The notes: generated by a model not told the origin, from the sequence alone. A stretch of 64,000 nt of DNA from an uncultured Candidatus Saccharibacteria bacterium (GCA_964556325.1 CAZKVS010000001.1:67133-131132), one strand, 5' to 3'; shown: positions 35,361 through 63,637, counted from the first letter of the stretch. Numbers and translations: made by a program.

Positions 35361-35378
35361 TGCCCGGTAGCCAAGTGG
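35361..35378 (+). repeat. Duplicated 5' 18 nt of tRNA-Gln (tgcccggtagccaagtgg)
   Basis: Identical to 35711..35728. Confidence 0.7.
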
Positions 35379-35450
35379 TCCCGATCAATATACGGGATCT
35401 GCGATAAGGCATCCCGATGCCGCATCGGGACATTCGAAGGTTCGAATCCT
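35372..35450. repeat. Structured repeat R, copy 1
   Basis: caagtggtcccgatcaatatacggg...aaggcatcccgatgccgcatcgggacattcgaaggttcgaatcc. Two hairpins and a T-arm-like end. Copies at 35799..35872 and 35944..35981. Confidence 0.55.
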
Positions 35451-35693
35451 ATGTACCATACGTATATTTTGGAGAACCCTGAAGGTCGGTTATATATTGG
35501 TCAAACTGATAATGTTGGGAATAGGCTATTGCGGCATAATTCTAACATGGTAAAATCAACAAAGAATAAGGGGCCTTGGAAGCTAATATATAGTCGCGAG
35601 TTTGTCGCTCGGAGTGAGTCGGTAGCGTTCGAAACTTATTTAAAATCTCTAAAAAGTTCGAAGTACATTAAATCTTATATAGTTGGTTCTTAA
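35451..35693 (+). CDS. GIY-YIG nuclease family protein (UPF0213/YhbQ-like)
   Basis: YILENPEGRLYIGQTDNVGNRLLRHN ... PWKLIYSREF ... E. The start codon directly follows repeat R. Confidence 0.7.
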   Translation: MYHTYILENPEGRLYIGQTDNVGNRLLRHNSNMVKSTKNKGPWKLIYSREFVARSESVAFETYLKSLKSSKYIKSYIVGS

Positions 35694-35710
35694 TTGGCTG
35701 CCCGTCATAG

Positions 35711-35784
35711 TGCCCGGTAGCCAAGTGGTAAGGCAGAGGACTCTGAATCCTCCATCCTAGGTTCGAATCCTAGCCGGGCAGCCA
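35711..35784 (+). tRNA. tRNA-Gln (anticodon CUG), CCA encoded
   Basis: Folded by hand. Acceptor TGCCCGG/CCGGGCA, anticodon stem GAGGA/TCCTC with loop CUCUGAA, T-arm CTAGG-TTCGAAT-CCTAG. The D-arm GCCAAGTGGTAAGGCA is close to E. coli tRNA-Gln. Confidence 0.8.
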
Positions 35785-35798
35785 ATTAAGAATCTAAA

Positions 35799-35872
35799 TC
35801 AAGTGGCCCCGATTAAGATGCGGGGTCCTCGATAAGGCACCCCGATGCTGCATCGGGGCATTCGTAGGTTCG
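35799..35872. repeat. Structured repeat R, copy 2
   Basis: caagtggccccgattaagatgcgggg...aaggcaccccgatgctgcatcggggcattcgtaggttcg. Confidence 0.5.
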
Positions 35873-35943
35873 CCCGTCTCGGCCGAGGAGAGGGCTGCCG
35901 AGCCGAGGTCGGAAATCCTTCCACCCCAGCCAAATAAATATAA

Positions 35944-35981
35944 AAGGCATCCCGACTCCGAATCGGGGCATTCCTAGGTTC
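35944..35981. repeat. Structured repeat R, partial copy 3
   Basis: aaggcatcccgactccgaatcggggcattcctaggttc. Confidence 0.4.
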
Positions 35982-36042
35982 TCCCGACCCCGCTATTATT
36001 TATAATATGACGTCGGGACCCCGACGTTGCGTCGGTGGGAAC

Positions 36043-36059
36043 CCTAGCCGGGCAGCCAA
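36043..36059 (+). repeat. Duplicated 3' 17 nt of tRNA-Gln (cctagccgggcagccaa)
   Basis: Identical to 35769..35785. Confidence 0.65.
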
Positions 36060-36061
36060 CC

Positions 36062-36086
36062 AAAATCGCCGAACAGGCGGTTTTTA
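36062..36086 (+). terminator. Intrinsic terminator (AAAATCGCCGAACAGGCGGTTTTTA), member of a 3-copy motif
   Basis: Stem cgcc/ggcg extended by A/T pairs, then a T-run. Near-identical copies at 37317 and 47845. Confidence 0.6.
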
Positions 36087-36121
36087 TATTATGCCTTTTA
36101 TTGTAGTGCTATCATTAAAGT

Positions 36122-37009
36122 ATGCATATTTTAGTTATTACCGGGGGTTCGTCTTCCGAACGGAAAATTTCTTTGCTTTCGGCAAAGGGGGTTAAGGGCG
36201 CGTTAGTTGCCAACGGGCACGCGGTAACTATGTTTGATTTTAAACGGGGGTATGACCAACTACGGAGTGCGCTTGAGAAGTGTGATATGGTTTTTCCGGT
36301 CATGCACGGCAAAGAAGGGGAGGACGGCACGTTGTATAAGTTTCTCCGCTCTGCTAAAAAGCCGTACGTAGGCTCAGAGCCAAAGGGGGCAAGGGTTGCG
36401 TTTGATAAAATTCTATTTAAAAAGTATTGCGACGCCAAAGGCATTCTTACTGCGCCATGGAAGGTTGTTAAAACCAGAGAAGATATTACTCGGTTTGGGT
36501 TGCCGTGTGTGTTGAAGGCTACCTATGGAGGCTCTTCGCACGAAGTGGCGCTCTTGCACACTGAAAAAGACCTTGCGAGTATTCGCGTTAAAAAAATACT
36601 TGCACTACCGTGCCGCTGGTATGTAGAGAGGCTACTGCAGGGCGTTGAAATTACCGTTGGGGTTCTGAACGGCAAGGCGTTACCGGTAATAGAAATTGTA
36701 CCGCCAAGTGCCGGTTGGTTTGACTATAAAAGTAAGTATTCAGGTGAGTCCCAGGAAATTCCTTTTGCACCGTCGGTAAGTAGTAAAGTTCAAAAACAGG
36801 CGCAAGCTCTCGCACTACGCATACACAAAGACCTTCGCCTAGGTAGTTATTCCCGAACAGACTTTATTGTACAAAATAGTAAGTTGTACATCCTGGAAAC
36901 CAACACCCCCGGCGGTGTCGGGCTTACTTCCGAGAGCCTGCTCCCAAAAGCTGCCAAGGCCATGGGAATGAGCTTTGAAAAACTTATTCAGCAAATGTTA
37001 AAGCAATAA
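36122..37009 (+). CDS. ddl: D-alanine--D-alanine ligase
   Basis: MHILVITGGSSSERKISLLSAKGV N-terminus, ATP-grasp core, C-terminal LYILETNTPGGVG. Confidence 0.85.
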   Translation: MHILVITGGSSSERKISLLSAKGVKGALVANGHAVTMFDFKRGYDQLRSALEKCDMVFPVMHGKEGEDGTLYKFLRSAKKPYVGSEPKGARVAFDKILFKKYCDAKGILTAPWKVVKTREDITRFGLPCVLKATYGGSSHEVALLHTEKDLASIRVKKILALPCRWYVERLLQGVEITVGVLNGKALPVIEIVPPSAGWFDYKSKYSGESQEIPFAPSVSSKVQKQAQALALRIHKDLRLGSYSRTDFIVQNSKLYILETNTPGGVGLTSESLLPKAAKAMGMSFEKLIQQMLKQ

Positions 37010-37316
37010 CGTTTTGGCAAAGGCACCCTATACAAAGGTGACCATTGTGTGGGGGAGTTTTTTGGAACAGTCTGGATTCTGTGATTCAAACCAGCCTGTG
37101 GATATGCGTTTGCGGGCAACGTTTTGAGGAGTGTATAATATATACAGATTTCAAAAGGTACGGTATAACTCCCTGTGAGTTACCGGTAGGCACAGTTGGA
37201 ATACATTCCTGCGTCAAATTAAATGAACTTCTGTCCATACGAGTTCAACTGCTAGGGGAACTGCAGAACCTTAAAGGACAGCCCACGTTATACTGTGCCT
37301 CTTGAAATCTCCCAAA

Positions 37317-37341
37317 ATCGCCAAATAGGCGGTTTTTTATT
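37317..37341 (+). terminator. Intrinsic terminator, second copy of the shared motif
   Basis: aaaatcgccaaataggcggtttttt. Confidence 0.55.
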
Positions 37342-37411
37342 TATTAGAATAAATAATGTTCTTATGATACAATTATATTAAATTTGATCCTTTTCCGGTT
37401 GTAATAAGTTT

Positions 37412-37780
37412 ATGTTCCATGTTTTAATTGCCGAGGATGAAAAGCCGATGGCCCATGCCCTTGTGTTAAAGTTGGCTAAGGCCGGTTTCCATTCCACTGT
37501 AGCGGAAAATGGTCAGATAGCCTTAAATTTGCTGCGCGACGGCCGTTATGACTTATTGCTTTTAGACATAATTATGCCACTCGTGAATGGCTTTTCTGTT
37601 CTGGAACAGTTGAAAAAAGATGGTGAGCATGCCATGCCCATTATCATGACTACCAATTTGGGACAGGAAGAAGACCGAAAAAGAGCCATGGATTTGGGTG
37701 CTGTTGACTACGTTATTAAGTCAGACACGCCAATAGCTCAAATAGTAGAAAAGATTCAGGTTATTTTAAACCCAAAGTAA
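37412..37780 (+). CDS. Stand-alone response-regulator receiver domain
   Basis: VLIAEDE ... LLLDIIMP ... K. Confidence 0.8.
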   Translation: MFHVLIAEDEKPMAHALVLKLAKAGFHSTVAENGQIALNLLRDGRYDLLLLDIIMPLVNGFSVLEQLKKDGEHAMPIIMTTNLGQEEDRKRAMDLGAVDYVIKSDTPIAQIVEKIQVILNPK

Positions 37781-37820
37781 ACAGTATGAGTCGGTTGTGG
37801 GTGGATTGGGTTAGTTTCTT

Positions 37821-38303
37821 ATGCATATGGATGTAGCAAATTATGTAAACGATAAAAAGCATACCCCTGGGTACCGTTGTAATAAGTGTGGCAAACTCTT
37901 GACTGAAGGTGAAGAGCACAAGGTTGAAATACGGTGTAATCGTTGTGGGACACTCAATAAAATATTGGAGAAAATGACCGAGCAAGTAATTGTTACCGAT
38001 GTAAGAGGTACTATACTATTTGTAAACGGAGAAGTTGAACGAATAACCGGTTATAGTGCGGAAGAAGCTATAGGCAAAACGCCTTCTTTGTGGGGCGGGC
38101 AAATGCCGCCGGAATTTTATAAGACTATGTGGTCTACGCTGGTAGACGAGAAACAAGGAGTTTCCGTAAAAGTTACCAATCGGCATAAGTCAGGGTATTT
38201 GTACGACGCGCTTCTCAGAGTTTCTCCGGTGTTGGATAGTCAGGGAAAAATAGAGTTATTTGTTGGTTTTGAGTCTTTGGTTGCCAAGCATCCGCCCCAA
38301 TAA
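37821..38303 (+). CDS. Zn-ribbon + PAS-domain protein
   Basis: CNKCGKL...CNRCG ribbon followed by a PAS-like fold (ITGYSAEEAIGKT...). Confidence 0.55.
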   Translation: MHMDVANYVNDKKHTPGYRCNKCGKLLTEGEEHKVEIRCNRCGTLNKILEKMTEQVIVTDVRGTILFVNGEVERITGYSAEEAIGKTPSLWGGQMPPEFYKTMWSTLVDEKQGVSVKVTNRHKSGYLYDALLRVSPVLDSQGKIELFVGFESLVAKHPPQ

Positions 38304-38380
38304 CTGCTCAAAAATATATATGTCGTAGCTCTTGTAGCTCACTTTTTACTAGGTGAGTTTTTATTTTTTTAGAAAACAAA

Positions 38381-40024
38381 ATGGACGAAATAAAAATACG
38401 AGAAATATTGCTAAAAGAAGACTATGTTTCCGCAGCCGATTTAAAAACTGCCGAGGAGTATGCTAAAAGTCATAAGACCACTTTACTCGATGGTCTTCTG
38501 TCTTTGCAGTTAATTACCAAAGATTTACTGCACCAAGCAATTGCCGAGTTTTTGGGCATGGCTTTTATAGACTTGACTGCAAAGCCGCCGGATAAAAAAG
38601 ATATACTCAGTATTCCGAAAGCTTTGGCGGAAAAAGAAAAAATAATTTTGTACAAGCAAACTTCCAAAGAGGCTACCATCGTTTCTGGTGGGGTTGTGTC
38701 TCCCGAAGCCTTGGCAGAACTGCAGAACCTTTTTGTAAATAAAAAAATAAGTGTTGTCTACGCTGATCCAGAAGCAATTGCACTCGCGATGATGCAGTAT
38801 CGGCCGGCACTTGAAACTCGATTTGGCGAAATTATCAAAGCCGGTGGAAAGGTTGCTCCGGAAATAATCGATCAAATTCTAGACGACGCACTTGCTTTGC
38901 GTGCGTCCGATATCCACTGCGAGCCGCAAGGTGCTGACGTACTTATTCGTTTTAGGATTGACGGAGTATTGCATGAAGCTGGACGAGTACCGAAAGAACA
39001 TTACGAAAACATTGTGAACCGGATTAAGGTGCAGGCCAAGCTGAGAATTGATGAACACTTGGCGAGTCAAGACGGTGCTATCCATTTTAGTGGCACACAT
39101 CATCAGGCAGACCTGCGGGTTTCAATTGTACCCACACTAGACGGTGAAAAAGTGGTTATTCGGGTTTTGGCAGAGTATGTTCGAGACTTTTCTCTCACAG
39201 ATATAGGGTTATCGGCGGAGGATCAACAAACGGTTGTGGAGGCCGCTCATAAACCGTTTGGTATGGTATTGGTGACTGGTCCTACTGGCAGCGGAAAGAC
39301 TACTACGTTATATTCCTTAGTCAAACTGTTAAACGACACGCAAGTTAACATAACCACTATTGAAGACCCGGTTGAGTATAAAATTACCGGCATAAACCAA
39401 ATTCAGGTAAATACTGTAAGCAATTTAACTTTTGCCAAAGGTCTGAGGGCAATAGCCAGGCAAGACCCCAATATTATTTTGGTGGGTGAAATCCGAGATT
39501 TAGAAACGGCGGATATAGCGGTCAACGCAGCGTTAACTGGTCACTTATTACTTTCCACTTTTCACGCCAACGACTCTGCTGCTGTAATGCCAAGGCTTTT
39601 AAACATGGGCATTGAGCCATTTTTACTTTCATCGACTCTGGAATTGATAGTGGCCCAGCGCTTGGTAAGGAAGATATGTGAAAGTTGTCGGTTCACTCAG
39701 AGCGTTACTCTGGACGACATTATAAAGTTGCTGCCACGTGCGAAAGAATATTTTTCAGAAAGTTCCGTAACGCTCTATAACGGTAAAGGGTGTGGTGCGT
39801 GCTCTCAGACTGGCTATAAAGGTCGTTTGGGTTTGTTCGAGTTTTTAAAAGTCACGCCAGAAATGTCCGACTTAATTTTGGCTAACCCTTCGAGTAAACA
39901 AATTTGGCAATTAGCAAAATCCCAAGGCTGTCGAAGTTTGTTTGAAGATGGTATACAAAAAGTTAAAGCGGGACACACGACGTTGGAAGAGTTATTGAGA
40001 GTGGTAAAACCTAAAGATTTATAA
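38381..40024 (+). CDS. pilB: Type IV pilus assembly ATPase PilB (GspE family)
   Basis: N-terminal GSPII_E_N repeats, Walker A VLVTGPTGSGKTTTLYS, Asp/His boxes, C-terminal tetra-Cys (CESC...CGAC). Confidence 0.9.
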   Translation: MDEIKIREILLKEDYVSAADLKTAEEYAKSHKTTLLDGLLSLQLITKDLLHQAIAEFLGMAFIDLTAKPPDKKDILSIPKALAEKEKIILYKQTSKEATIVSGGVVSPEALAELQNLFVNKKISVVYADPEAIALAMMQYRPALETRFGEIIKAGGKVAPEIIDQILDDALALRASDIHCEPQGADVLIRFRIDGVLHEAGRVPKEHYENIVNRIKVQAKLRIDEHLASQDGAIHFSGTHHQADLRVSIVPTLDGEKVVIRVLAEYVRDFSLTDIGLSAEDQQTVVEAAHKPFGMVLVTGPTGSGKTTTLYSLVKLLNDTQVNITTIEDPVEYKITGINQIQVNTVSNLTFAKGLRAIARQDPNIILVGEIRDLETADIAVNAALTGHLLLSTFHANDSAAVMPRLLNMGIEPFLLSSTLELIVAQRLVRKICESCRFTQSVTLDDIIKLLPRAKEYFSESSVTLYNGKGCGACSQTGYKGRLGLFEFLKVTPEMSDLILANPSSKQIWQLAKSQGCRSLFEDGIQKVKAGHTTLEELLRVVKPKDL

Positions 40025-40025
40025 C

Positions 40026-41162
40026 ATGCCTCAGGTAAAAATTCGTAAACGTCAGATTGAAGAAGACTATGAAGCACAACCGCCTTTTGCGTTTCATTCG
40101 GGCTGGCCGTACTTTACTGTTGGCTTTGGTGACGAGATAGACTACTTTGTGGAGAATTTGAGCATTATGATAGCTTCGGGTATGGGTGTAACCGCGGCTT
40201 TGGCTGGCATTAAAGTCGGTACTAAAAACCGGAGTTTAAAAAAGAACATAGCAGTCATAGAACAAATGATTGCCGATGGTTTTCCGCTTTGGAAAGCCTT
40301 TGAGCGCACTCAATTTTTACCCTCTCGAATAATTGCCTTAGTAAAATCGGGTGAAGAATCGGGTCGTTTACCTGAGCACCTCAATTTAGTTACTATCCAA
40401 CAGCATAAAGAACGAATTTTTGTTTCCCGTATACGCTCCGCATTGCTGTATCCGGGTATTGTGCTCGCGTTGGCCTTTGTGGTTGCGGTGGGCAGCGCGT
40501 GGGTCACGCTCCCACGGCTAATTACAGTTTTTAATGAAATTCACACGAGTTTGCCACCCACCACTAGAATGATTATTTGGTTGGGGAATTTTTTGGCCCA
40601 CTACGGCAGTTTCGCAGTTCCCCTCACTCTGTTCGGGGCTGGAGTACTCGTATATGCAATATTTTTTTATACTAAAACTAAAATTGTAGGGGAGTATATT
40701 ATATTATTTTTACCGGGAATAAATAAGCTCATCCAAGGTGTAGAGTTGGCGCGCTTTGGCTATATATTTGGCGCCTTGCTTTCTGCGGGTATTCACATAG
40801 AGGAAGCCATGAGTTCCGTTCGTGAGGGGACTAGCTTTGTATCGTATAGAAAATTCTACGTATTTTTGCAAGACGGCATAAGCCAAGGCAATTCATTTAG
40901 TACCATCTTTGCCGGATATGCACACTCAGATCGCTATATTCCGGCGCCTATGCAAAAACTTATTATTGCTGCTGAGCAAAGTGGTAAATTGCCGGAGACC
41001 TTACTAAAAATTGGCCAAATTTTTGAAGAAAAAACTGAAACCATGAGTCAGGATTTATCTACTATTTTAGAGCCAATAGTTTTAATTGTTGTAGGAATTT
41101 TTGTAGGCTTTATTGTATTAGGTTTAATTAGCCCAATATATGGACTTTCAAGCCAGATATAA
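40026..41162 (+). CDS. pilC: Type IV pilus platform protein PilC (GspF family)
   Basis: Two T2SSF-like repeats and three TM segments. Confidence 0.85.
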   Translation: MPQVKIRKRQIEEDYEAQPPFAFHSGWPYFTVGFGDEIDYFVENLSIMIASGMGVTAALAGIKVGTKNRSLKKNIAVIEQMIADGFPLWKAFERTQFLPSRIIALVKSGEESGRLPEHLNLVTIQQHKERIFVSRIRSALLYPGIVLALAFVVAVGSAWVTLPRLITVFNEIHTSLPPTTRMIIWLGNFLAHYGSFAVPLTLFGAGVLVYAIFFYTKTKIVGEYIILFLPGINKLIQGVELARFGYIFGALLSAGIHIEEAMSSVREGTSFVSYRKFYVFLQDGISQGNSFSTIFAGYAHSDRYIPAPMQKLIIAAEQSGKLPETLLKIGQIFEEKTETMSQDLSTILEPIVLIVVGIFVGFIVLGLISPIYGLSSQI

Positions 41163-41589
41163 CACGCAGGGTTTTAGTCTTATCGAAGTTATGGTTGTGG
41201 TCGGGCTTTTAGCGTTGTTCGCTGGAGCTGTTGGGCCCGTGTACCGAACAGTACAAACCAAGACAAATTTAGATATTGCTGTTGCGGGGGTAGCTTCAGC
41301 GTACAGGCGGGCACAGGCAGCGTCTCAGTCGGGCAACGCTGATGCTAATTGGGGAGTAAAATTTTTTACGACTCATACTGTTGTATTTGCGGGGAACAGT
41401 TATGCAGTAAGGCAAGCTTCCTATGACGAAAAACTAGATTTCCCGGATGACACAACTGTTTCTGGAAATACTGAAGTTGTGTTTACTAAATTTACCGGAT
41501 TACCACAAGCTACTGGAACTACAACAGTAACGAACTCTTTTGGCAGTAAAAACCTCATTGTAAATGCACAAGGAACTGTTACGTACTAA
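41140..41589 (+). CDS. Type IV pilin-like protein (prepilin N-terminal methylation domain)
   Basis: Leader MDFQARYNTQG then FSLIEVMVVVGLLALFAG (G|F, with E5). Confidence 0.7.
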   Translation: MDFQARYNTQGFSLIEVMVVVGLLALFAGAVGPVYRTVQTKTNLDIAVAGVASAYRRAQAASQSGNADANWGVKFFTTHTVVFAGNSYAVRQASYDEKLDFPDDTTVSGNTEVVFTKFTGLPQATGTTTVTNSFGSKNLIVNAQGTVTY

Positions 41590-43747: not shown

Positions 43748-43759
43748 AAATGGAAAAAT

Positions 43760-44287: not shown

Positions 44288-44669
44288 AAGTTATACAGGA
44301 TTTGTAACGCTCTATAGCGTGATAATTTTGGGCTCGATTGGTTTAGTCCTGGTTGCAGCATTGGCCGCTACAAGCATATGGGTTATTCGTACGAGTGGTG
44401 ATGACAAAAATTCTGCTCAGGCACGCAAGGCTGCGGATAGTTGTGTGGAACTAGCCTTGCAAGCTATGCACGATAGCAATAGCTTTACTGGCAGTGGCAA
44501 TGCTTCCGTTGGTGGCGCAACGTGTACTTATGTAGTGACCAACACCGGTGGGAATAACCGCACTGTGGGTGCTACAGGCACAGTTGGTGCCCTGGTACGT
44601 AGAGTTTCTGTTACAACTACTGCCTTTACTCCTTCCCTTACTGTTTCTAGCTGGCAAGAAGTGCCTTAG
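44265..44669 (+). CDS. Minor pilin-like protein (PilX-like, lacks E5)
   Basis: Hydrophobic N-terminus (GFVTLYSVIILGSIGLVLVAALA), then an S/T/G-rich domain. Overlaps the previous gene by 23 nt. Confidence 0.4.
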   Translation: MVRVLYDKSYTGFVTLYSVIILGSIGLVLVAALAATSIWVIRTSGDDKNSAQARKAADSCVELALQAMHDSNSFTGSGNASVGGATCTYVVTNTGGNNRTVGATGTVGALVRRVSVTTTAFTPSLTVSSWQEVP

Positions 44670-52592: not shown

Positions 52593-52748
52593 TGTCATTC
52601 CGGAAGCTACCCACCTACGCCAAGGCTTCGGCGGGCAGGCGAGTCAATCTCCAACCAAGCAAGGGCTACTTGTCCGACGTAGCTTTAGCGAAGTTGGGTC
52701 CGGAATCCATCTTAACACCTGGATCCCGGCTCAGAGGCCGGGATGACG
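52593..52748. repeat. MITE-like element with TGTCATTCCGG / CCGGGATGAC terminal inverted repeats (copy A, 156 bp)
   Basis: Starts tgtcattccggaagc and ends ggccgggatgacgg. Internal sub-palindromes tccggaatcc and ggatcccgg. Confidence 0.6.
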
Positions 52749-52769
52749 GCTACTTTTGGAAGAAATATA

Positions 52770-53012
52770 ATGCATAATCAATCCAACGACCCACTACACG
52801 GAAAGACGCTACAAGCAATTGTAGAGTTTTTGGTAGCGGAGTATGGGTGGGAAAACTTAGGCACACGGATAAAGATTAAATGTTTTCAGGTAAACCCCAG
52901 TGTAAAATCCAGCCTGACCTTCTTGCGTCGTACCTCTTGGGCGCGCGAGCAAGTAGAAGCGTTGTACGTGGGTGCTATTCGTGAAAAGCCCACAGATATG
53001 TCGTTTGAGTAA
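52770..53012 (+). CDS. DUF2132 (VF530-like) small protein
   Basis: LHGKTLQAIVEFLVAEYGWENLG...KSSLTFLRRTSWAREQVEALY. Confidence 0.55.
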   Translation: MHNQSNDPLHGKTLQAIVEFLVAEYGWENLGTRIKIKCFQVNPSVKSSLTFLRRTSWAREQVEALYVGAIREKPTDMSFE

Positions 53013-53075
53013 ATATGGAAAAACATCCCCGCATATCGCTGGCGTAATTAGCAGGCCTCTCACATTGCCCACTCT

Positions 53076-53182
53076 CTGTCATTCCGGTTTCCACGAGGTC
53101 TTCCGAGGGAATACCGGAATCCAGTATTTCTAAGGCGTGGATCCCGGACAGCCCGCGAGGGCTTGTGGCTTCCGGGATGACA
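53076..53182. repeat. MITE-like element, copy B (107 bp)
   Basis: tgtcattccggtttcc...ggcttccgggatgaca. Confidence 0.6.
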
Positions 53183-53219
53183 AGACAGGGGGGGGCGCAA
53201 GAGGTTAAATATTTATAGT

Positions 53220-54893: not shown

Positions 54894-54900
54894 AACAAGT

Positions 54901-55368
54901 ATGCCCGACGCAAACATAGACCAGAAAGACCCATATTTTGTAGCCGTAAAAGTTTTTTTAGAACTTGACGGTAAGTTTTTGGTGATGAAAGACAATTTTG
55001 GTCAGTGGGACTTGCCGGGTGGACGTATAAAGAAAGATGAGTTTGCTGTACCGCTAGAAGACATCGTAAAACGGAAGATGTTTGAAGAGGTGGGAGAGGG
55101 CGTACAGTATGTATTAGGTAAGCCTATAGTCTTTATGCGGCATGAGCGAGTAGAGCACGCGCCGGGTAACCCCACAGTGCGCATATTTGCCATTGGCTAC
55201 CAAGCTACCTGGCAGAGTGGGGAAGTGAGTTTCTCTGAGCGTCATACCGAGCTGCTGTGGGCTGACCCTGCCACATTTAAACCCGCAGATTACTTTACCG
55301 GCGGCTGGTTGAAGGGTGTGCAAGAATATATAGCTTTACAAACGGAGCCTCAGGCACCCCTTGAGTAA
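54901..55368 (+). CDS. NUDIX hydrolase
   Basis: Nudix box GGRIKKDEFAVPLEDIVKRKMFEEVGE. Confidence 0.75.
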   Translation: MPDANIDQKDPYFVAVKVFLELDGKFLVMKDNFGQWDLPGGRIKKDEFAVPLEDIVKRKMFEEVGEGVQYVLGKPIVFMRHERVEHAPGNPTVRIFAIGYQATWQSGEVSFSERHTELLWADPATFKPADYFTGGWLKGVQEYIALQTEPQAPLE

Positions 55369-55381
55369 TATTTGTTGAAAT

Positions 55382-56848: not shown

Positions 56849-56950
56849 AATGTATGACCATTAATATTATATGAACCAAGATATTTTAAATTATAGTTGA
56901 CAGGCTTCGTATTTGATATATACTTGATTAGTCAACTATATATCAAATAT

Positions 56951-57367
56951 ATGAAAAACATGCACAGTGGAGTAGGGTTTTTATTGCAGCTCGCAAAAGT
57001 AAATGCGGTCTTTACCCGTAAGCTGGACGCGCGACTTGGCGGTATAGGTTTTACGGAGTTTGTACTTATGTACCACATAAGCCAAGCCGAAGGTGGTCGC
57101 ATGCGCCGTACCGACTTGGCCGAAAAGTTGGGTTTAACAGCGTCGGGCGTCACTCGGCTGCTCTTGCCTATGGAAAAAATTGGTTTGGTTAAGCGCGAGG
57201 CGGACAAAAACGACGCACGGGTGAGTTACGTGACTCTTGGTGCCGGCGGCAAACAAAAATTGGCTGAAGGCATGGAACGCGCAGAACTTTTTGTGGAGGA
57301 TGTGATGCCTACGGGTAAATTAAAAAAGTTAGAAGACTTGACTCAGTTACTTGCAGAAATTGTTTAA
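56951..57367 (+). CDS. MarR-family transcriptional regulator
   Basis: Winged-HTH pattern (RTDLAEKLGLTASGVTRLLLPMEKIGLVKRE...D). Confidence 0.7.
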   Translation: MKNMHSGVGFLLQLAKVNAVFTRKLDARLGGIGFTEFVLMYHISQAEGGRMRRTDLAEKLGLTASGVTRLLLPMEKIGLVKREADKNDARVSYVTLGAGGKQKLAEGMERAELFVEDVMPTGKLKKLEDLTQLLAEIV

Positions 57368-57408
57368 ACAGTGATGCATGGAGAAAGCCATCCAAGAAGG
57401 GTGGCTTT

Positions 57409-58143
57409 TTAAGTTAGCTTGCTAAAAAGTAGTTTATATATCTGTCTTTGAAATTGCGCGAATTTAGGACTTTCAATTAAGCTTGCGGTTTCTGTGTCGT
57501 AGTCAATTATTGCCACGTAGTCTCCATAAATTATATTGGTAATATTGTATTCAAAGGAGTCATAACTTCGCGGGATGGCTTTGGAATAACGCTCAATCCT
57601 GTTTCTGCGCTTTTTTTGAGTTGCTTCATTGGTTATAACAAATTTTTGCATGTCCCAGTTCGGCCCGGCGGCCCGGCGCCAGTATGATTTAGAGTAGTAC
57701 TTTTTGTGTTTTGTGTAATCGGCTGATGATTCGTACCGATACAATGTCTCACCTTTTTTGGTGTGGCTGACTAAATAGTCAAACACATACGCAATACCAT
57801 CCCGACCCTGGAAGTAGCGAATGGCAGGCTTCTTGCTTGCATGTTCAAACTGGTGTTGAAGTACTGGCAGTCGTTCCTGAAATTCAGCTTGGAGCTCTTC
57901 AAGTACCGCCTGTAAATTGGATGGGTTTTCAGCTGTATAGATTGTGCGTTTGCCTAGTTTGCTTTCGGAAATTAAGTTTTTTTCCAAGAGCAGGGGAAGT
58001 TGGCGATAGAGTAGCGGGCGGTAGAGTCCGGTCGCTTTGGCTAAGCCTGCTAGGGTGGTGGGCCCGCCTTTGAGGAGTATCTGATATATAGTCTCCGCTT
58101 GTGCCGGAAGCCCGAGTTTGGCGAAGAGGGAAATCTTTTTCAT
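57409..58143 (-). CDS. TrmB-like HTH transcriptional regulator
   Basis: N-terminal wHTH (IYQILLKGGPTTLAGLAKATGLYRPLLYRQL). C-terminal domain unknown. Confidence 0.45.
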   Translation of the reverse strand: MKKISLFAKLGLPAQAETIYQILLKGGPTTLAGLAKATGLYRPLLYRQLPLLLEKNLISESKLGKRTIYTAENPSNLQAVLEELQAEFQERLPVLQHQFEHASKKPAIRYFQGRDGIAYVFDYLVSHTKKGETLYRYESSADYTKHKKYYSKSYWRRAAGPNWDMQKFVITNEATQKKRRNRIERYSKAIPRSYDSFEYNITNIIYGDYVAIIDYDTETASLIESPKFAQFQRQIYKLLFSKLT

Positions 58144-58331
58144 AGTTTTAAGTGTATTACAAGTAGTACACTTTTTATCTTACCTAGAAGCCCTAAAACA
58201 AACAAGTGTTAGGAAATTATAGTCTATATGTTACAAACCTTACCATTTGGAAAGCACTTTTTGCATTGTCTATAGTACGGTATAAGTAGCACAAGATAAG
58301 CAGAACATTCACAATTTTTTAGGGGGTTACC

Positions 58332-58610
58332 ATGACGGGAGTAAAGATTCTTGAAGCGGTTGAGACTTATGAGCAGTTATTTGCGGAACGGGGTATGCAG
58401 CGCGTTAAAGTGTCACATGATATGGTGCCGCAAAATGCCGGCGAGCAATTGGGACATGCATATGCCATGCTGCCGCAATTACGAGAATTTGTAGCTGAAG
58501 GTAGACTGGAAAAAGCTTTTAGGTGGCTTGGGTTTATCCAAGGTGTACTCTGGGCGAACGGTGTGTTCGTCTTGGAAGACCTCAAGAACCATAATCGGCC
58601 GGTTTCTTAA
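58332..58610 (+). CDS. Hypothetical small protein
   Basis: 92 aa. Hairpin terminator at 58620..58660. Confidence 0.35.
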   Translation: MTGVKILEAVETYEQLFAERGMQRVKVSHDMVPQNAGEQLGHAYAMLPQLREFVAEGRLEKAFRWLGFIQGVLWANGVFVLEDLKNHNRPVS

Positions 58611-58748
58611 TCCCAGATCAAAGAATGTCTAGTTACACATACTCGACATTCTTTTGGGCGACCACTTTTTTTATATGTGATGGTGTATTGATTTATTCGT
58701 GTTTTCCTAGTATCCTTATGCGGCTTTACATCACTTTTCAAGGAGGCT

Positions 58749-59507
58749 TTGAAAGACATGGGACTGGTAGCATCTGTCCGTCCTAAAGCGAGTGTCACTA
58801 TGGCAGTGTTTGTACTGGCCGGCATGCACTTTTCCCGTCAACCTATTTCTTGGTTTGTGGTTTGCATGGTGTTGTTCATCGCTATGTTTGCGATGAGCTG
58901 GAATGACCTTTATGATCGGGCGGCAGACCGGCAAAAAGGAAAAATGTATGCATGGGAACATCCCAAACGACTGACCGCATTGGTTTCAGTTCTAGCCGTC
59001 ATTTCGTTCTCAATGACACTATTTGCGTTTACTCTCAGGACAGGGTTCGGATGTCTTGGCGTGGCTATATGGTTTAGCTCGGCCATATATCCATTTTTGC
59101 AAACCCGACCATGCATAAAGAATGTGACTGTTGCGCTTACCGTTGGGGCAACTGTCCTTTTCCCACTGTGTGTACAATTTTCTGCTGCTCAGTGGTTACT
59201 GTTTTGTTCCTTATGTTTATTGACGTCTGCTCGAGAGTTTTTGGGAGATGTTGATGGCGTGCGTGTTGAACAGTTCTACAAACGAACTGCCGCGATGGTA
59301 TGGGGTGTTCCTCGCTCCAAGAACGTTGCAGCAACGTTACTCATTGCATCATCGTTGGTGGCCTTTTTGTGGCCAGCCTTTTTGCTCGCCGCTATTCCGA
59401 CTCTTGTAGGAGCAGTTCTGCTCCTTGTTAACAAGAACTATGCTGTGGCTCGGTTGTTGTTAGAGCTTTCCCTGGTAGGTTGGGGAGTGGCGGCCTATAT
59501 GTCTTAA
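58749..59507 (+). CDS. UbiA-family prenyltransferase-like membrane protein
   Basis: NDLYDRAADRQKGK (NDxxDxxxD). Seven to eight TM helices. Confidence 0.55.
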   Translation: MKDMGLVASVRPKASVTMAVFVLAGMHFSRQPISWFVVCMVLFIAMFAMSWNDLYDRAADRQKGKMYAWEHPKRLTALVSVLAVISFSMTLFAFTLRTGFGCLGVAIWFSSAIYPFLQTRPCIKNVTVALTVGATVLFPLCVQFSAAQWLLFCSLCLLTSAREFLGDVDGVRVEQFYKRTAAMVWGVPRSKNVAATLLIASSLVAFLWPAFLLAAIPTLVGAVLLLVNKNYAVARLLLELSLVGWGVAAYMS

Positions 59508-59553
59508 ACAAAAAGCGCCAGGTTTCTGAATAGAAACCTGGCGCTTTGACGAT

Positions 59554-59928
59554 TTACACACTTAGTAGCTTTATTAAGTTGGCGTGCAGAGCAGCTACGG
59601 CTTCGTCTTTTTTGAGTGCTTCGGTGTAGTTAGTGCCAAAGGCGCCGTTGCCGCCGCCGGTGGTAGTGAGGGTGGTTTTGGTGTATTTGGCTATTTGGTT
59701 TATCTCGGCTTCGGTTTTGGCTTCCTTACTCTCTAAGAGTTCGTCCATGCTTATAACTAGAGCACTTAGGGTTTTGAGCCAGGCAAAAGACTCATCGTTC
59801 ACCACTAGCTGGTAGTAGTGGTTGGGGTTTTGAATGGGGCCAACGGTGGACTCATATGTGCGTTTTTGGTACTCCATCAGTGCCTTATGAAGCAGTAGAA
59901 GCTGCTCTCGAATTTCGCTTAAGTTCAT
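59554..59928 (-). CDS. Hypothetical protein
   Basis: Start moved to the internal Met (MNLSEIREQ). Confidence 0.35.
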   Translation of the reverse strand: MNLSEIREQLLLLHKALMEYQKRTYESTVGPIQNPNHYYQLVVNDESFAWLKTLSALVISMDELLESKEAKTEAEINQIAKYTKTTLTTTGGGNGAFGTNYTEALKKDEAVAALHANLIKLLSV

Positions 59929-60050
59929 AAATTTTACAACAATTGAACAATGTAACAATGAAACAATAGAACATTAGTATACCAAAATTAAGAAAAGAAC
60001 GTGATATAATACCCGTGCTTTGTTAAGTAGGCTCTAATTTCTTTTTCCGT

Positions 60051-60887
60051 ATGGCTGAATATTATAAAAGTTATAAACCCCGGACTTTTGACCCGGCGAG
60101 CAAAGAAGCCTTTAAAGTCTCCAGGAGTAAGATTGATTTTTTTGTAGATTGTCCGCGCTGTTTTTACATGGAAGCCCGACACGGGGTCAAACGGCCTAGC
60201 ATGCCTTCGTTTACACTCAATCTTGCCGTGGATGCTTTGCTTAAAAAAGAGTTTGATGTACATCGAACAAAAGGCAGTGCTCATCCTCTCATGGAAAAGT
60301 ATGGGTTGGACCTTGTGCCATTTAAGCATGTGCAAATGGACGAGTGGCGAGAGAACTTTGTGGGCGTGCGGACTTTACACCAGCCTACCAATTTGCTGGT
60401 GTTTGGAGCGGTAGATGACATTTGGGTGAGTAAAATGGGGGAGCTATTTGTGGTGGACTATAAAGCTACTAGCAAAGACACTGCCGTAACTGAGTTGGAG
60501 AACACAAAATGGCACGACCAGTATCGTCGGCAAATGGAGGTCTACCAGTGGTTGCTCCGTCAAAATGGTTTTACTGTTTCCAACACTGGTTATTTTGTAT
60601 ACGTAAACGGCAGGAAGGACTTAGCTGCCTTTGATGGCAAGCTTGAGTTTGAAGTTAATCTTATTTCGTACACGGGTAGTGACGCGTGGGTAGAGCAAAC
60701 ACTTTCGCGCATGAAAACGTGTTTATTGGGCGAGTTGCCGAGTATAAGCGACACCTGCGAATTTTGTGTGTATCGTAAATCTGCTCAGGGTTTTGAGGTT
60801 ACGGAGCAAAAGGCTAAAGTACCGGTGCAAGTGGCTAAAGCTGCTAAGAAAGTCCGTGCCACACCCATTGGCGAGCCGTTGTTTTAA
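60051..60887 (+). CDS. PD-(D/E)XK nuclease with Cas4-like cysteine pattern
   Basis: DDIWVS...VVDYKAT (D...D/ExK) and QxxxY. One N-terminal Cys (CPRC) and three C-terminal Cys (C-x11-C-x2-C), as in RecB-family Fe-S nucleases. Confidence 0.5.
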   Translation: MAEYYKSYKPRTFDPASKEAFKVSRSKIDFFVDCPRCFYMEARHGVKRPSMPSFTLNLAVDALLKKEFDVHRTKGSAHPLMEKYGLDLVPFKHVQMDEWRENFVGVRTLHQPTNLLVFGAVDDIWVSKMGELFVVDYKATSKDTAVTELENTKWHDQYRRQMEVYQWLLRQNGFTVSNTGYFVYVNGRKDLAAFDGKLEFEVNLISYTGSDAWVEQTLSRMKTCLLGELPSISDTCEFCVYRKSAQGFEVTEQKAKVPVQVAKAAKKVRATPIGEPLF

Positions 60888-60974
60888 TGTATAAGCCCGC
60901 ACATCGCACGCGTTGCCTTTTAAGCCGAAAAAACCTATACTAAAGTATAGGTTTTGTCTTTAAAATAGATACAT

Positions 60975-62135
60975 ATGCGGAGAATTATAGTTAGTATGTT
61001 AGGGCTTATGGGGGTGGGTCTTATGTTGTTGCCTTCAGTGAGTTTGGCAGCGGAGTTTGTAAAACCCTCAGACGATTCGGGCAACTTGGTTTTAAGTACC
61101 ACGGAAACACATAAGAACTTGTACACTGCGGGTGGAAATGTAACCGTGAATAGCGAAACAAAAGGCGATTTGTACGTAGCTGGCGGAGTTATTACCATAG
61201 ACGGTGCAGTGGAACAAGATGCTGTAATTGCCGGTGGTACGGTATTTGTAAACAGCAAAGTAGGTGGCGATGTTCGCGTGGCCGGTGGTACGGTTACTGT
61301 AAACGCAGATATTGCCGGTGATGTAGTGGCAGCCGGTGGCACACTCGTTATAAGCGAACGAGCTAAAATTGGTGGAGACTTAATCATGGCCGGTGGTACG
61401 GTAACACTCAGTGCGCCGGTAGCCGGTAAAGTGTGGGCAACAGGTGGCCAAGTGACAGTAGATAGCACAGTCGCTGGTGCAGTCACTATTAAGTCCGCTC
61501 GCATGGTGACTTTTGGCTCCCGTGCAAATGTGGCTGGTTCAGTTACCGTGACTGGCGAGCAAGAACCTGTGGTTCGTGACGGTGCCAAAGTGGGTACCAT
61601 TAACTACACCAAGTCCATGGAAAGTGCCACGGCTGGACAAGTTGCTCGCGTGTTGGTGCTTGGTAGCTTGGTCTGGGTGTTGGCCTCTATAGTTACTGCT
61701 TTGGTGTTTGCATGGTTGGCTCCTCGCCGAGTAGAAAACTTTGTGGCTGCTGTACAACGGAAGTTTTGGGTTAACGCTGCTATTGGGTTAGCTGCTTTAG
61801 TGGTTACGCCTGTCGTAATAATTGCTTTACTCTTCTTACTTGTGGGTTACCAGCTCGCTCTGCTGTTGCTAGTGGGGTATATATTTGCCTTAAGCATAGC
61901 CTGGGTTCTCGCTGTATTATGGACCGGTGTGCAAACCTATCATCTCATACAAAGGAAGGCCGCGGTGCCTATGGGCTGGCAAGTAGCGGTGCTAGGTGGT
62001 GTCATTTTCACCCTTGTTCGCTTTATTCCAGTAGTCGGCATGCTATTCTGTTTTGTAGTACTTATGGCTAGCTTTGGCGGGTTATTGGTCCAGGCAAAAC
62101 AGAGCTTAATTGAGCGACACAGCGAAGAAAAATAA
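60975..62135 (+). CDS. Bactofilin-like protein (polymer-forming beta-helix repeats) with C-terminal multi-TM domain
   Basis: Signal peptide. Repeated GGxVxVxxxVxGDV units. Four TM helices at the C-terminus. Confidence 0.55.
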   Translation: MRRIIVSMLGLMGVGLMLLPSVSLAAEFVKPSDDSGNLVLSTTETHKNLYTAGGNVTVNSETKGDLYVAGGVITIDGAVEQDAVIAGGTVFVNSKVGGDVRVAGGTVTVNADIAGDVVAAGGTLVISERAKIGGDLIMAGGTVTLSAPVAGKVWATGGQVTVDSTVAGAVTIKSARMVTFGSRANVAGSVTVTGEQEPVVRDGAKVGTINYTKSMESATAGQVARVLVLGSLVWVLASIVTALVFAWLAPRRVENFVAAVQRKFWVNAAIGLAALVVTPVVIIALLFLLVGYQLALLLLVGYIFALSIAWVLAVLWTGVQTYHLIQRKAAVPMGWQVAVLGGVIFTLVRFIPVVGMLFCFVVLMASFGGLLVQAKQSLIERHSEEK

Positions 62136-62246
62136 TTAATTTCCTCGGATGCACGGATAACACGGATTGCGCAGATTATGGAGCAGTGCCTTTCGTATTC
62201 TGTATTGCAATCTGTGATATCCGTGTAATCCGTAATCTGTGAACAT
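62136..62246. repeat. Word-built intergenic palindrome (CGGAT words)
   Basis: gatgcacggataacacggattgcgcagattatg ... caatctgtgatatccgtgtaatccgtaatctgtg. Confidence 0.65.
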
Positions 62247-62525
62247 ATGGGTATTTTAGACAAACTAAAAGACGTAAATGAAATGCGCAAGCAAGCCAAG
62301 CAAATAGAGCTGCTTCTTGGGCAGGTAGATGTAACTGGTAAGTCCTCCGGTGGTAAAATAATCATTACCATGGACGGAAACCAGGTCGTAAAAAGTGTAC
62401 AAGTGGACGACTCTATAGTAGGAGACAGGGGAGAAATAGCGCGTAACATTCGGGCCGCTTTAGACGATTTATTTAAAGAGCACAAGAAAGTGTTGCAGTC
62501 CAAGTTTGGTAGTATGATGCAATAG
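62247..62525 (+). CDS. ybaB: Nucleoid-associated protein YbaB/EbfC
   Basis: Length and pattern MGILDKLKDVNEMRKQAKQIE... Confidence 0.7.
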   Translation: MGILDKLKDVNEMRKQAKQIELLLGQVDVTGKSSGGKIIITMDGNQVVKSVQVDDSIVGDRGEIARNIRAALDDLFKEHKKVLQSKFGSMMQ

Positions 62526-62640
62526 TCGCAAAGAAATTTCCAATTTCTAATTACTAATTTCTAATGTGAAGTACAAAAACCTTATTGTATTCATAATTAG
62601 AAATTAGATATTAGGCATTAGATATTTGAGTCAAAACTAA
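62526..62640. repeat. Word-built intergenic palindrome (CTAAT words)
   Basis: ccaatttctaattactaatttctaatgtg ... cataattagaaattagatattaggcattagatattt. Confidence 0.65.
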
Positions 62641-62641
62641 A

Positions 62642-63508
62642 ATGAGAACATATCTAAAAATACTTTTTGCTGGTATTACCACACTGCTGTTACCGTCGCA
62701 GGTTTTTGCCTTAACTATTTACGACTTGCAACCTCGGGTGGAAGCGGCTTCGGTTACAGCCAAGTCTGTTGTGGTACTTAATCAAACTAACGGAGAAGTA
62801 TTATATGAGCTGGGTGGGGGAGATGTTCGCACGCCGGCTAGCTTGGTAAAACTTACTACTGTATTGGTCGCACTTGATGTAATTCCAGATTGGAACGCAA
62901 CCTGTACCGTTGGCATTGCCGACCGTGTGGGTGGAGTTCAAATAACTAAGGCAGACCAGGCTATAACATATACTCTGAACAGCATGCTCCGTGCAGTGCT
63001 TATTCCTTCGGCAAACGACGCTGCAACTGCGCTTGCTCGGTGTACGGGACTTTCGCATGCAGGCTTTTTAGCGCGCATGCAAAGTAAGGCCATGCAGCTT
63101 GGCGCAACACAAACTGCGTTTGCAGACACCTCCGGCATATCAGGTGCAAATAAAACCACGGCGCTGGACATGGCCCATATAGCCAACGCAGCATTTAGCA
63201 CGGAGATTGTCCGAAGTATAACTCGACTCTCCAGCTACCGTCTATGCAGTGTGCAAAAGCAGTGCCAAACGCTGGCCAATACTAACCAGTTGTTGAAAGA
63301 TAAAGATTTAACCACAATAGCAGGTAAAACAGGGACACTCGATGGCGCATATAACTTTGCGGGTAGCTTTCGCGATGTCCACGGCCATTATTTTGTAGTA
63401 GTAGTACTTGGTGGTACGACTAAGGATGCCCGTTTTGCTGAAGCTAAAAAGCTAGTCAGTTTTGCCTCCGTTCGTGCTGACTGGTCTGACCAGTTTGTTG
63501 TAAGATAG
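62642..63508 (+). CDS. D-alanyl-D-alanine carboxypeptidase (PBP5/DacA family)
   Basis: Signal peptide. Motifs SLVK (SxxK), SAND (SxN) and KTGT. Confidence 0.75.
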   Translation: MRTYLKILFAGITTLLLPSQVFALTIYDLQPRVEAASVTAKSVVVLNQTNGEVLYELGGGDVRTPASLVKLTTVLVALDVIPDWNATCTVGIADRVGGVQITKADQAITYTLNSMLRAVLIPSANDAATALARCTGLSHAGFLARMQSKAMQLGATQTAFADTSGISGANKTTALDMAHIANAAFSTEIVRSITRLSSYRLCSVQKQCQTLANTNQLLKDKDLTTIAGKTGTLDGAYNFAGSFRDVHGHYFVVVVLGGTTKDARFAEAKKLVSFASVRADWSDQFVVR

Positions 63509-63577
63509 ATGCTGATATACGCAGATTGCGACGCGGATAAACGCGGAGTGTTTCGGTTGCTCTTCAGTAACCTCCTT

Positions 63578-63637
63578 TGTCATTCCGGACGCTACAAGTC
63601 CCGATGCCGCATCGGGATGCGGGCGATCCGGAATCCA
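63578..63637. repeat. MITE-like element, short copy C, containing the TCCCGATGCCGCATCGGGA core
   Basis: tgtcattccggacgctacaagtcccgatgccgcatcgggatgcgggcgatccggaatcc. Confidence 0.55.

Follow-up and report, generated by a model that had tools for sequence, protein, structure and literature searches.

A hairpin family shared by truncated tRNA-Gln copies and dispersed repeats in a Saccharibacteria genome, and its candidate GIY-YIG nuclease

Introduction

Why should one short palindrome occur both in repeats beside a tRNA gene and inside a dispersed element elsewhere in the same stretch of a genome? The question is raised by 64,000 nucleotides (nt) of DNA from an uncultured Candidatus Saccharibacteria bacterium (GCA_964556325.1 CAZKVS010000001.1:67133-131132), and this whole stretch is referred to here as the window. 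A first-pass annotation had described a palindrome of 17-19 nt common to a tRNA-associated repeat, R, and to an element that was called MITE-like (MITE, miniature inverted-repeat transposable element), and had proposed that it is either a protein-binding site, such as that of a transposase or nuclease, or an RNA hairpin module. The R copies turn out to be truncated tRNA-Gln copies that bracket a gene for a small GIY-YIG nuclease, and the palindrome is probably a recognition site, in the form of a hairpin in single-stranded DNA (ssDNA), for this nuclease, which we call Ssn-like on account of its domain, catalytic residues and gene layout and not as an assignment to the Ssn clade proper (cd10448). 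Loci from other contigs and genomes are given L numbers.

Results

The palindrome and its copies in the window

The 19-mer TCCCGATGCCGCATCGGGA has two exact copies in the window, and so has the 17-mer CCCGATGCCGCATCGGG, at 35413-35429 and 63600-63616.

35412-35430, plus strand: palindrome copy 1, TCCCGATGCCGCATCGGGA, with its A...C frame on the plus strand
63599-63617, minus strand: palindrome copy in the loop of a dispersed repeat, with its A...C frame on the minus strand, GCA-TCCCGATGCGGCATCGGGA-C

The exact sharing between the two loci therefore stands, but not the perfect symmetry first ascribed to it, as the 8-bp arms enclose an asymmetric CCG centre so that the reverse strand differs by 1 base. 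The range given earlier for the first copy was correct and that for the second, 63594-63618, somewhat too wide. The near variants reported in R copies 2 and 3 were found as well, CCCCGATGCTGCATCGGGG at 35840-35858 and TCCCGACTCCGAATCGGGG at 35950-35968. When up to 3 mismatches were allowed there were 7 matches on both strands, compared to 0.07 expected from 100 shuffles. The palindrome of R copy 1 folds as ssDNA into an 8-bp stem with a 3-nt loop (-8 kcal/mol, z = -3.05). The minus strand of the copy at 63599-63617 aligns with R copy 1 for 24 nt, the single mismatch being in the middle, GCATCCCGATGC[G/C]GCATCGGGAC.

The palindrome takes the place of the anticodon arm in truncated tRNA-Gln copies

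That repeat R is associated with a tRNA had been noted correctly; what had gone unseen is that its three copies are truncated tRNA-Gln copies and that they enclose a nuclease gene together with an intact tRNA-Gln. The latter, with 67.4 bits, is the only tRNA called in the window by ARAGORN and Rfam. The features of the locus are as follows.

35361-35450, plus strand: R copy 1, a 5' tRNA-Gln remnant with the acceptor 5' strand TGCCCGG and no 3' acceptor strand
35451-35693, plus strand: gene for an 80-aa single-domain GIY-YIG nuclease, Ssn-like or UPF0213-like (PF01541, E = 1.8e-15)
35687-35704, plus strand: left arm of an 18-bp perfect inverted repeat, overlapping the end of the nuclease open reading frame (ORF)
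35711-35784, plus strand: intact tRNA-Gln(CUG), found by ARAGORN and Rfam
35775-35792, plus strand: right arm of the 18-bp perfect inverted repeat, in the tRNA 3' end and trailer
35800-35932, plus strand: R copy 2, a tRNA-Gln remnant without the 5' acceptor strand, with a D-loop hairpin, the palindrome variant at 35840-35858 and the 3' end CACCCCAGCCA
35873-35913, plus strand: CGTC-tagged 41-nt hairpin (CCCGTCTCGGCCGAGG...CCGAGGTCGGA) splitting the T loop of R copy 2
35944-36058, plus strand: R copy 3, a 3' tRNA-Gln remnant beginning at AAGGCA, with the palindrome variant at 35950-35968 and the 3' end CCGGGCAGCCA

In all three R copies the palindrome lies between A26 and C44, exactly where the 17-nt anticodon arm would be. 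The first 19 nt of R copy 1 are those of the real tRNA-Gln, its D arm and loop carry a 26-nt hairpin insert (35380-35405), and then follow AAGGCA, the palindrome, CATTC and the 5' half of the T arm with the T loop, after which comes the nuclease start codon, ATG. In R copy 3 an insert of about 57 nt, which holds another CCGACGTTGCGTCGG hairpin, interrupts the T loop, and the end of this copy, CCGGGCAGCCA, is complementary to the TGCCCGG of R copy 1 and pairs with it. Hairpins related to the one at 35873-35913 are found in the remnant D loops of L035, L026 and L028. Neither ARAGORN nor Rfam called a tRNA in any R copy, and the full cloverleaf, paired acceptor stem and 7-nt anticodon loop of a functional tRNA are lacking: each copy is without one acceptor strand, and the loop in copies 1 and 2 is 3 nt. 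Two readings of the remnants as genuine tRNA genes were rejected. A group I intron, or a split or intron-containing tRNA, does not fit because the inserts are 26-57 nt and match no intron model, and the paper on tRNA introns in Patescibacteria concerns other sites. A real tRNA with an unusual anticodon, in which the 17-nt core would be a 5-bp stem with a 7-nt loop, does not fit because the cores vary from 16 to 19 nt, the would-be anticodons follow no rule and every remnant is short of one acceptor strand.

The intact tRNA-Gln is enclosed by the 18-bp inverted repeat. Of 41 tRNA-Gln genes next to hairpins, 16 have a leader and trailer that are complementary over at least 9 nt, compared to 0 of 24 other tRNAs, and this complementarity may reflect a processing stem or a hairpin in DNA. 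Such an inverted repeat is also present at L002, L005, L006, L023, L026, L032, L048 and L052, and its arm sequences vary by locus.

The nuclease gene

The PF01541 match spans residues 1-72 of the 80, and there is no domain other than the GIY-YIG catalytic one. By inspection of the sequence, Y5, Y15 and E61 correspond to the catalytic Y6, Y17 and E64 of SsnA, and the protein is 33% identical to a homologue from L122 that is flanked by repetitive extragenic palindromes (REPs). The gene has the hairpin at 35412-35430 upstream and those at 35840-35858 and 35950-35968 downstream. Its start codon lies within the 3' strand of the T stem of R copy 1 (35436-35453), as is also the case in L002, L020 and L026, and the sole Shine-Dalgarno-like sequence before it is the T-stem 5' strand (GAAGG). 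A defence system was considered and rejected, as PADLOC gave marginal matches only and NCBIfam a sub-threshold match to a group-I-intron endonuclease.

The same module in other genomes

A protein-based search yielded a sample consisting of L002-L004, L005, L006 and L183, with nuclease identities of 86% (L002), 69% (L005), 65% (L006) and 42% (L183). In L002-L004, L005 and L006 a tRNA remnant with TCCCGAT..ATCGGGA precedes the GIY-YIG gene, which is followed by an intact tRNA-Gln and then by a second hairpin-bearing remnant. TCCCGA..TCGGGA hairpins lie within about 100 nt of the gene in L002, L005, L006 and L183, on both sides of it in the first three and only 3' of the ORF in L183, and tRNA-Gln is directly downstream of the gene in L002, L005 and L006. 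The neighbourhood of the gene is the same as that in the window in L002 and different in L005 and L006. In L183, which comes from another community, there is no intact tRNA; the ORF is bracketed by a TTGGAGCCAAT repeat and runs into tRNA-like fragments with two hairpins.

A DNA-based scan of 185,579 species genomes with the pattern AAGGCAYCCCGA-N2-12-TCGGGRCAT (AAGGCA-hairpin-CAT) gave 50 loci. At least 31 are from Patescibacteria (Moraniibacteriota, Saccharibacteria, Paceibacteria, Doudnabacteria, SR1, Peribacteria) and the remaining ones include Bacteroidota, Micavibrio and Bdellovibrionales. A real tRNA-Gln lies no more than 300 nt away in 34 of these loci, co-oriented in 33 of the 34, and a GIY-YIG ORF no more than 600 nt away in 18, all of them co-oriented. 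L020, from Saccharibacteria, has the identical 19-mer in the same tRNA position. The remnants of L048 are the functional tRNA-Gln base for base, save for the 17-nt anticodon arm, where TCCCGATTGGATCGGGR stands in for GCGCCCTTTGGAGGCGC. At L005 and L025 the two remnant halves on the outside pair with one another (TGCCCGG/CCGGGCA) and the acceptor stem of the enclosed tRNA is different (TGGGGCG/CGCCCCA), and thus the nuclease and its tRNA form a module inside a split tRNA-Gln-like gene; as a sign of a homing-type cassette this is suggestive only. Tandem remnant arrays beside real tRNA and GIY-YIG genes are present in L022 (7134-7674, 5 x 131 nt), in L044 (5825-5942, 2 x 100 nt) and in L017 (4176-4444, 4 x 84 nt), where the scaffold is tRNA-Ser-like and there are two GIY-YIG copies.

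Some further observations on these loci are recorded here. The L017 remnants at 3309-3401 and 3678-3768 are called 'tRNA-Cys(gca)' by ARAGORN because TCCCGATTGCATCGGGA can pass for a 5-bp stem that closes a 7-nt loop, and hairpin-bearing remnants are a likely source of false tRNA annotations. In L002, two extra ORFs (178 and 208 aa, with no Pfam match) are inserted between the tRNA remnants and ddl (4520-6214), and between these ORFs, at 5060-5150, is a tRNA-like fragment with TCCCGACTCTCAGTCGGGA that ends in ...GGTCGGGCAGCCA; the site looks like an insertion hot spot. In L005 the hairpin centre of the right remnant (4408-4424) is CTA and that of the left one is CTG, the Gln anticodon, and at other loci the centres are arbitrary.

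Sequence, spacing and orientation of the hairpin family

As judged from the sequences compared, a hairpin family of the form 5'-A[TCCCGAY-N0-6-RTCGGGA]C-3' accompanies the small single-domain GIY-YIG gene. A comparison of 57 distinct cores, each 16-19 nt long, shows a conserved stem, (T/C)CCCGA(T/C), around a centre of 0-6 nt that is free to vary; several of the cores, with centres of 0-2 nt, are perfectly palindromic. The outer stem pair is T-A in 44, C-G in 8, T-G in 8 and C-A in 2, and the seventh pair is T-A in 41 and C-G in 13. As these two positions change jointly on both sides, pairing is selected. The variable spacing counts against a rigid dimer on duplex DNA. Among the hairpins with flanks that the search pattern left free, 22 of 27 have an A on the 5' side and a C on the 3' side of one strand, compared to 12.5% by chance. 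The D-loop hairpins are inverted relative to those in the anticodon position, as is the copy at 63599.

Dispersed TGTC-tagged REPs

CGTC-tagged REPs have been described as extragenic units with a CGTC, TGTC or CCTC tag, a CCA tail and a stem of 8-9 bp that starts with complementary A and T. They are found predominantly after coding regions, often as dimers; Neisseria dRS3 and Rickettsia RPE-4/6 are examples, and in the words of that description they 'apparently lack a dedicated transposase' (Di Nocera 2013, PMC3733652). Going by sequence, the dispersed TGTCATTCCGG elements of the window are CGTC/TGTC-tagged REPs; the tag, the AT-initiated stem, the CCA tail and the position after genes fit this class better than the label MITE-like.

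35244-35278, plus strand: single TGTC-tagged REP-like hairpin (TGTCATTCCGAGCGAGTCTTCGAGTCGAGGAATCT), 9 nt past the stop of the upstream beta-lactamase-family ORF
52593-52750, no strand assigned: TGTC-tagged REP dimer, TGTC-ATTCCGGA-(95-nt loop insert)-TCCGGAAT-CCA ... TGG-ATCCCGGC..GCCGGGAT-GACG
53077-53185, no strand assigned: TGTC-tagged REP dimer with expanded loops
63578-63637, plus strand: single TGTC-tagged REP (TGTC-ATTCCGGA ... TCCGGAAT-CCA) with the palindrome in its loop (-18.5 kcal/mol, z = -4.35)

The unit has the form TGTC-ATTCCGG(A)...(T)CCGGAAT-CCA, to which the dimers add an inverted TGTC-ATCCCGG...CCGGGAT-CCA. The TGTC tag is found at 35244, 52593, 53077 and 63578, and on the minus strand at the dimer ends 52747 and 53181. 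The dispersed units have a stem that begins with complementary A and T, and the CCA tail. The loop of 4-5 nt typical of such REPs is not seen in the window, where loops are 24-95 nt with nested hairpins; a canonical unit with a 5-nt loop is present in the relative L005. The 35244 hairpin, a unit that also occurs in the strain contig L001, ends in CTA and not in CCA. All four dispersed loci begin 7-70 nt past a stop codon and two of them are inverted dimers. The ggaatcc/ggatccc sub-palindromes previously noted in both element types are indeed there, but their origins differ: in R they belong to the tRNA T loop (GGTTCGAATCC), in the dispersed element to the stem of the REP and the CCA tail after it (CCGGAAT-CCA). 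Comparison of 63578 with the empty site in L178 shows no target-site duplication, and transposase genes were searched for with the GIY-YIG profile only.

Three side observations concern this part of the window. A small gene for a VF530 (PF09905) DNA-binding protein (52743-53012) lies between the two TGTC-REP dimers, one on each side (52593-53185). The tagged REP heads that come after genes, as listed in the window, are all on the plus strand. GC skew is positive in all 2-kb bins, and therefore the window lies on one replication arm.

REP-hairpin composites and polymorphism between strains

At least 120 metagenome contigs match the composite pattern GTCATYCCGG-N0-25-TCCCGAY-N0-6-RTCGGGA, for which about 10 chance matches are expected by a rough estimate and not by a computed control. 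The composites take two forms. In one, the hairpin is in the loop of a TTCCGG/CCGGAA hairpin, as at 63578, and in the other it is the partner, GGA-TCCCGAC..GTCGGGA-TGAC. The link between the tRNA repeats and the dispersed TGTCATTCCGG family that had been proposed is thereby upheld, since hairpins of the class TCCCGAY-N0-6-RTCGGGA lie beside or inside GTCATYCCGG hairpins in these contigs and the same class flanks the GIY-YIG/tRNA-Gln module in many genomes. Genes next to the composites are unrelated to each other, and among the matches listed GIY-YIG is the only recurrent non-orthologous neighbour family, seen in 3 contigs by neighbour clustering and in 5 of the 120 listed by profile search. 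Viral contigs gave 0 matches for both the tRNA-type and the REP-composite pattern, and carriage by phages was rejected on these grounds.

Both element types are polymorphic. In L177, where the upstream penicillin-binding protein is 87% identical, the REP orthologous to that at 63578 has the tip CCGTTGCGG in place of the 19-mer, and no REP is present at this position in L178 (83%), L180 and L181. Over 1014 nt, the strain contig L001 and the window share 98.9% identity, and L001 is without the 41-nt T-loop hairpin at 35873-35913. Directly 5' of this insert there are 3 substitutions in 11 nt between the window and L001, after 740 nt free of differences, and this cluster looks more like copying from another template than a clean insertion.

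Discussion

A probable recognition site for an Ssn-like nuclease

The anatomy of the locus, its recurrence across genomes, the oriented A...C frame, the compensatory stem changes and the polymorphism in presence/absence or tip were observed here, and the question is what they mean. The closest precedent is SsnA, a 94-aa single-domain GIY-YIG protein that binds the NTS hairpin repeat (CGTCATTCCCGCGMAVGCGGGAATCYRG), which contains dRS3 (Chenal 2025, PMC11893778). According to the same report SsnA binds ssDNA only, and neither duplex DNA nor RNA; cleavage takes place a few nt upstream of the hairpin; binding depends above all on the C directly after the palindrome; and the loop tolerates other sequences as well as extension. 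The ssn gene typically lies between its own repeats, as in NTS-ssnA-NTS, there are thousands of homologues, and whether hairpin-ssn-hairpin units are mobile was left open (PMC11893778). Between the two functional options of the first-pass annotation we favor the nuclease site because a GIY-YIG gene lies between the hairpins, because Ssn provides a precedent with CGTC-type repeats and because the A...C frame is kept in 22 of 27 hairpins; the covariation that had been suggested as a check was indeed found in the stem pairs and suits both options, the RNA hairpin module being the weaker one.

By analogy with Ssn, the nuclease would bind the hairpin when the DNA is single-stranded, as in replication, repair or DNA uptake, and would cut a few bases 5' of it. 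Our best guess is that cleavage followed by repair, with copying from another template that bears the hairpin, would spread hairpins into tRNA arms and REP loops. The tRNA locus may then be the 'hairpin - nuclease - hairpin' layout of Ssn on a tRNA scaffold whose anticodon arm was swapped for the hairpin, and the REP at 63578 may have acquired a tRNA-type hairpin at its tip, inverted.

Several points weigh against this explanation. Binding and cleavage by the nuclease of the window are what we infer from homology and layout. The best solved relative of the nuclease is 1zg2, UPF0213 protein BH0048 (E = 4e-7). The published SRM pattern, HGTCWYN(0-2)YYVSBRHN(0-5)WNVSBRGN(0-2)RNCYNB, has no match in the window, as GGC takes the place of the GTC tag in the tRNA-type hairpins; in other hairpins of this type other bases stand there, or GGCA. 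In 344 kb of Patescibacteria-rich genome loci the pattern has 1 match, and in 673 kb of REP-selected metagenome loci it has 45; GGCATCCCGA and GTCATCCCGA are one base apart. As a GIY-YIG-like ORF was found in just 5 of the 120 listed contigs, most dispersed copies are far from a nuclease gene. The exact replacement of an arm or tip at the base of its stem, rather than an insertion, is left unexplained. Finally, in the tRNA sense T-G mismatches outnumber C-A mismatches by 10 to 4, a mild excess that fits an RNA hairpin as well; in the REP context G-T and C-A number 6 and 9, which is no excess.

Alternative explanations

A bolder version of the nuclease-site explanation is that hairpin, Ssn-like GIY-YIG gene, tRNA-Gln and hairpin together make up an autonomous selfish cassette that invades tRNA-Gln, and sometimes tRNA-Ser, genes across phyla and swaps the anticodon arm of its host for the nuclease hairpin. 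We regard this as possible but doubtful. If it is true, the cassette carries its own working tRNA-Gln and its loss by recombination between remnants would also delete that tRNA-Gln copy. The small GIY-YIG single-strand nuclease would then be the long-missing mobilising enzyme of CGTC-type REPs, and the locus would show the route by which hairpins spread into tRNA arms and REP loops.

It is unlikely that the hairpin acts at the level of RNA, as a stem-loop that terminates or stabilises a transcript or marks it for processing, for example in REPs at the 3' ends of upstream genes or as a leader or processing signal in the nuclease mRNA and the tRNA-Gln precursor. Such a role would account for the position of the four dispersed elements, all just past stop codons and in sense orientation, for the co-orientation of remnants, nuclease and tRNA (33 of 34 and 18 of 18 loci), for the stem covariation, for T-G mismatches being more frequent than C-A ones when read in the tRNA sense, and for the leader/trailer inverted repeat of tRNA-Gln, which resembles a processing stem; moreover, many REPs are considered to be transcribed RNA elements (Di Nocera 2013, PMC3733652). 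It does not account for the occurrence of both orientations within one transcription unit, where the D-loop copies, like the one at 63599, are inverted and yet keep the A...C frame, nor for cores that are perfect palindromes with hardly any centre, nor for a stem sequence that is conserved across phyla far beyond what pairing needs. In addition, the hairpin has no match to an Rfam family, a search of R and the dispersed elements at gathering and permissive thresholds returning the real tRNA-Gln only, and RNA is not bound by SsnA (PMC11893778).

Less likely again is that the locus is passive debris, left by integrase-type integration and excision at a tRNA-Gln attachment site or by decaying tandem tRNA duplicates, with the hairpin being a generic GC-rich palindrome that has no dedicated protein. 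The tRNA 3' ends are indeed repeated (CCGGGCAGCCA at 35775 and 36048, CACCCCAGCCA at 35922), L002 has extra ORFs at the same spot, and L017, L022 and L044 contain tandem remnant arrays. However, no integrase adjoins the locus in the window or in L002-L006, the nuclease gene is a constant partner, and the same stem replaces the anticodon arm in many phyla, including in the tRNA-Ser-like copies of L017. The L048 remnants, being otherwise identical to the functional tRNA, are not simply decaying.

An operator in duplex DNA for a dimeric regulator, for instance one through which the nuclease gene regulates itself, is very improbable. A symmetric sequence just upstream of the nuclease start codon would suit it, but the conserved 7-bp half-sites are spaced 0-6 nt apart, which a rigid dimer would not tolerate, copies are found downstream of the gene, in the loops of REPs and in the D and T loops of tRNAs, and there is no associated regulator gene. 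A chance match of two unrelated GC-rich hairpins, for which one might cite that there are just two exact copies in 64 kb, is effectively refuted by the number of matches relative to shuffled sequence, by the identical 19-mer in the same tRNA context of another species (L020) and by the composite instances elsewhere, at least 120 of them.

Significance

The REP class and the nuclease family are already known, and the form embedded in tRNA-Gln appears to be undescribed in the searchable literature. The features that appear to be new are the swaps of an arm for a hairpin, the enclosed functional tRNA-Gln and the leader/trailer inverted repeat around that tRNA. Searches of the literature for GIY-YIG together with tRNA-Gln, tRNA-like sequences, Patescibacteria or UPF0213, or for the sequences themselves as words, did not find this arrangement, and the words 'tRNA' and 'Patescibacteria' are absent from the main text of the Ssn paper (PMC11893778). 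REPs of the CGTC type, such as Neisseria dRS3, Rickettsia RPE and many others, have long been without a known mobilising enzyme. The occurrence of the same nuclease and hairpin module in tRNA-Gln genes of very different bacteria is a natural experiment in which split host halves, exact arm swaps, tandem amplification and gain of a hairpin at the strain level can all be seen. It points to rearrangement by a hairpin-directed single-strand nuclease as a source of tRNA pseudogenes and nested REPs in the reduced genomes of Patescibacteria, and it makes the 80-aa enzyme a candidate single-strand-specific nuclease with a new specificity.

Comparison with known systems

The system most like the one described here is Ssn (PMC11893778). 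In both the protein is small, at 80 aa here, 94 aa in SsnA and about 90-100 aa in Ssn nucleases generally, and consists of one GIY-YIG domain with the catalytic Tyr, Tyr and Glu. In both, too, hairpin repeats whose orientation is set by the C after the palindrome stand before and after the gene, the loop is free to vary or extend, and related hairpins are dispersed in the genome as REPs. Unlike in Ssn, the flanking hairpins of the window have no CGTC tag and fail the SRM pattern, they are in truncated tRNA-Gln copies where they replace the anticodon arm or D loop, the module contains an intact tRNA-Gln, and the hosts are mostly Patescibacteria. The dispersed elements share with CGTC-tagged REPs (PMC3733652) the TGTC variant of the tag, an A,T-initiated stem, here of 7-8 bp, the CCA tail, the location downstream of genes and the occurrence as dimers (2 of 4 here); they differ in their loops, 24-95 nt with nested hairpins and not 4-5 nt, in dimers with the tags outward and the tails inward, and in the one unit that has a tRNA-type hairpin in its loop.

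REPs and bacterial interspersed mosaic elements (BIMEs) with their REP-associated tyrosine transposases (RAYTs), known as REPtrons and REPINs, are likewise extragenic hairpins recognized as ssDNA by an enzyme whose gene they flank, and their dispersed copies are mostly non-autonomous, but here the enzyme is a GIY-YIG nuclease and not an HUH tyrosine transposase, and there is no GTAG tag. SegB of phage T4 (PMC2330249) is also encoded by a GIY-YIG gene among tRNA genes, with co-conversion of the flanks, and tRNA regions are reported to undergo segmental amplification driven by a nuclease (PMC13096335). SegB, however, is larger, has a DNA-binding domain, cuts duplex DNA in a phage system and has neither hairpin sites nor arm-swapped tRNA remnants. 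Integrative elements that target the anticodon or T loop of tRNA genes resemble the module in the partial tRNA duplications around it and in the use of the symmetric anticodon arm as the exchange point; the module described here differs in that it has no integrase, is only about 0.4 kb and replaces the anticodon arm instead of duplicating it.

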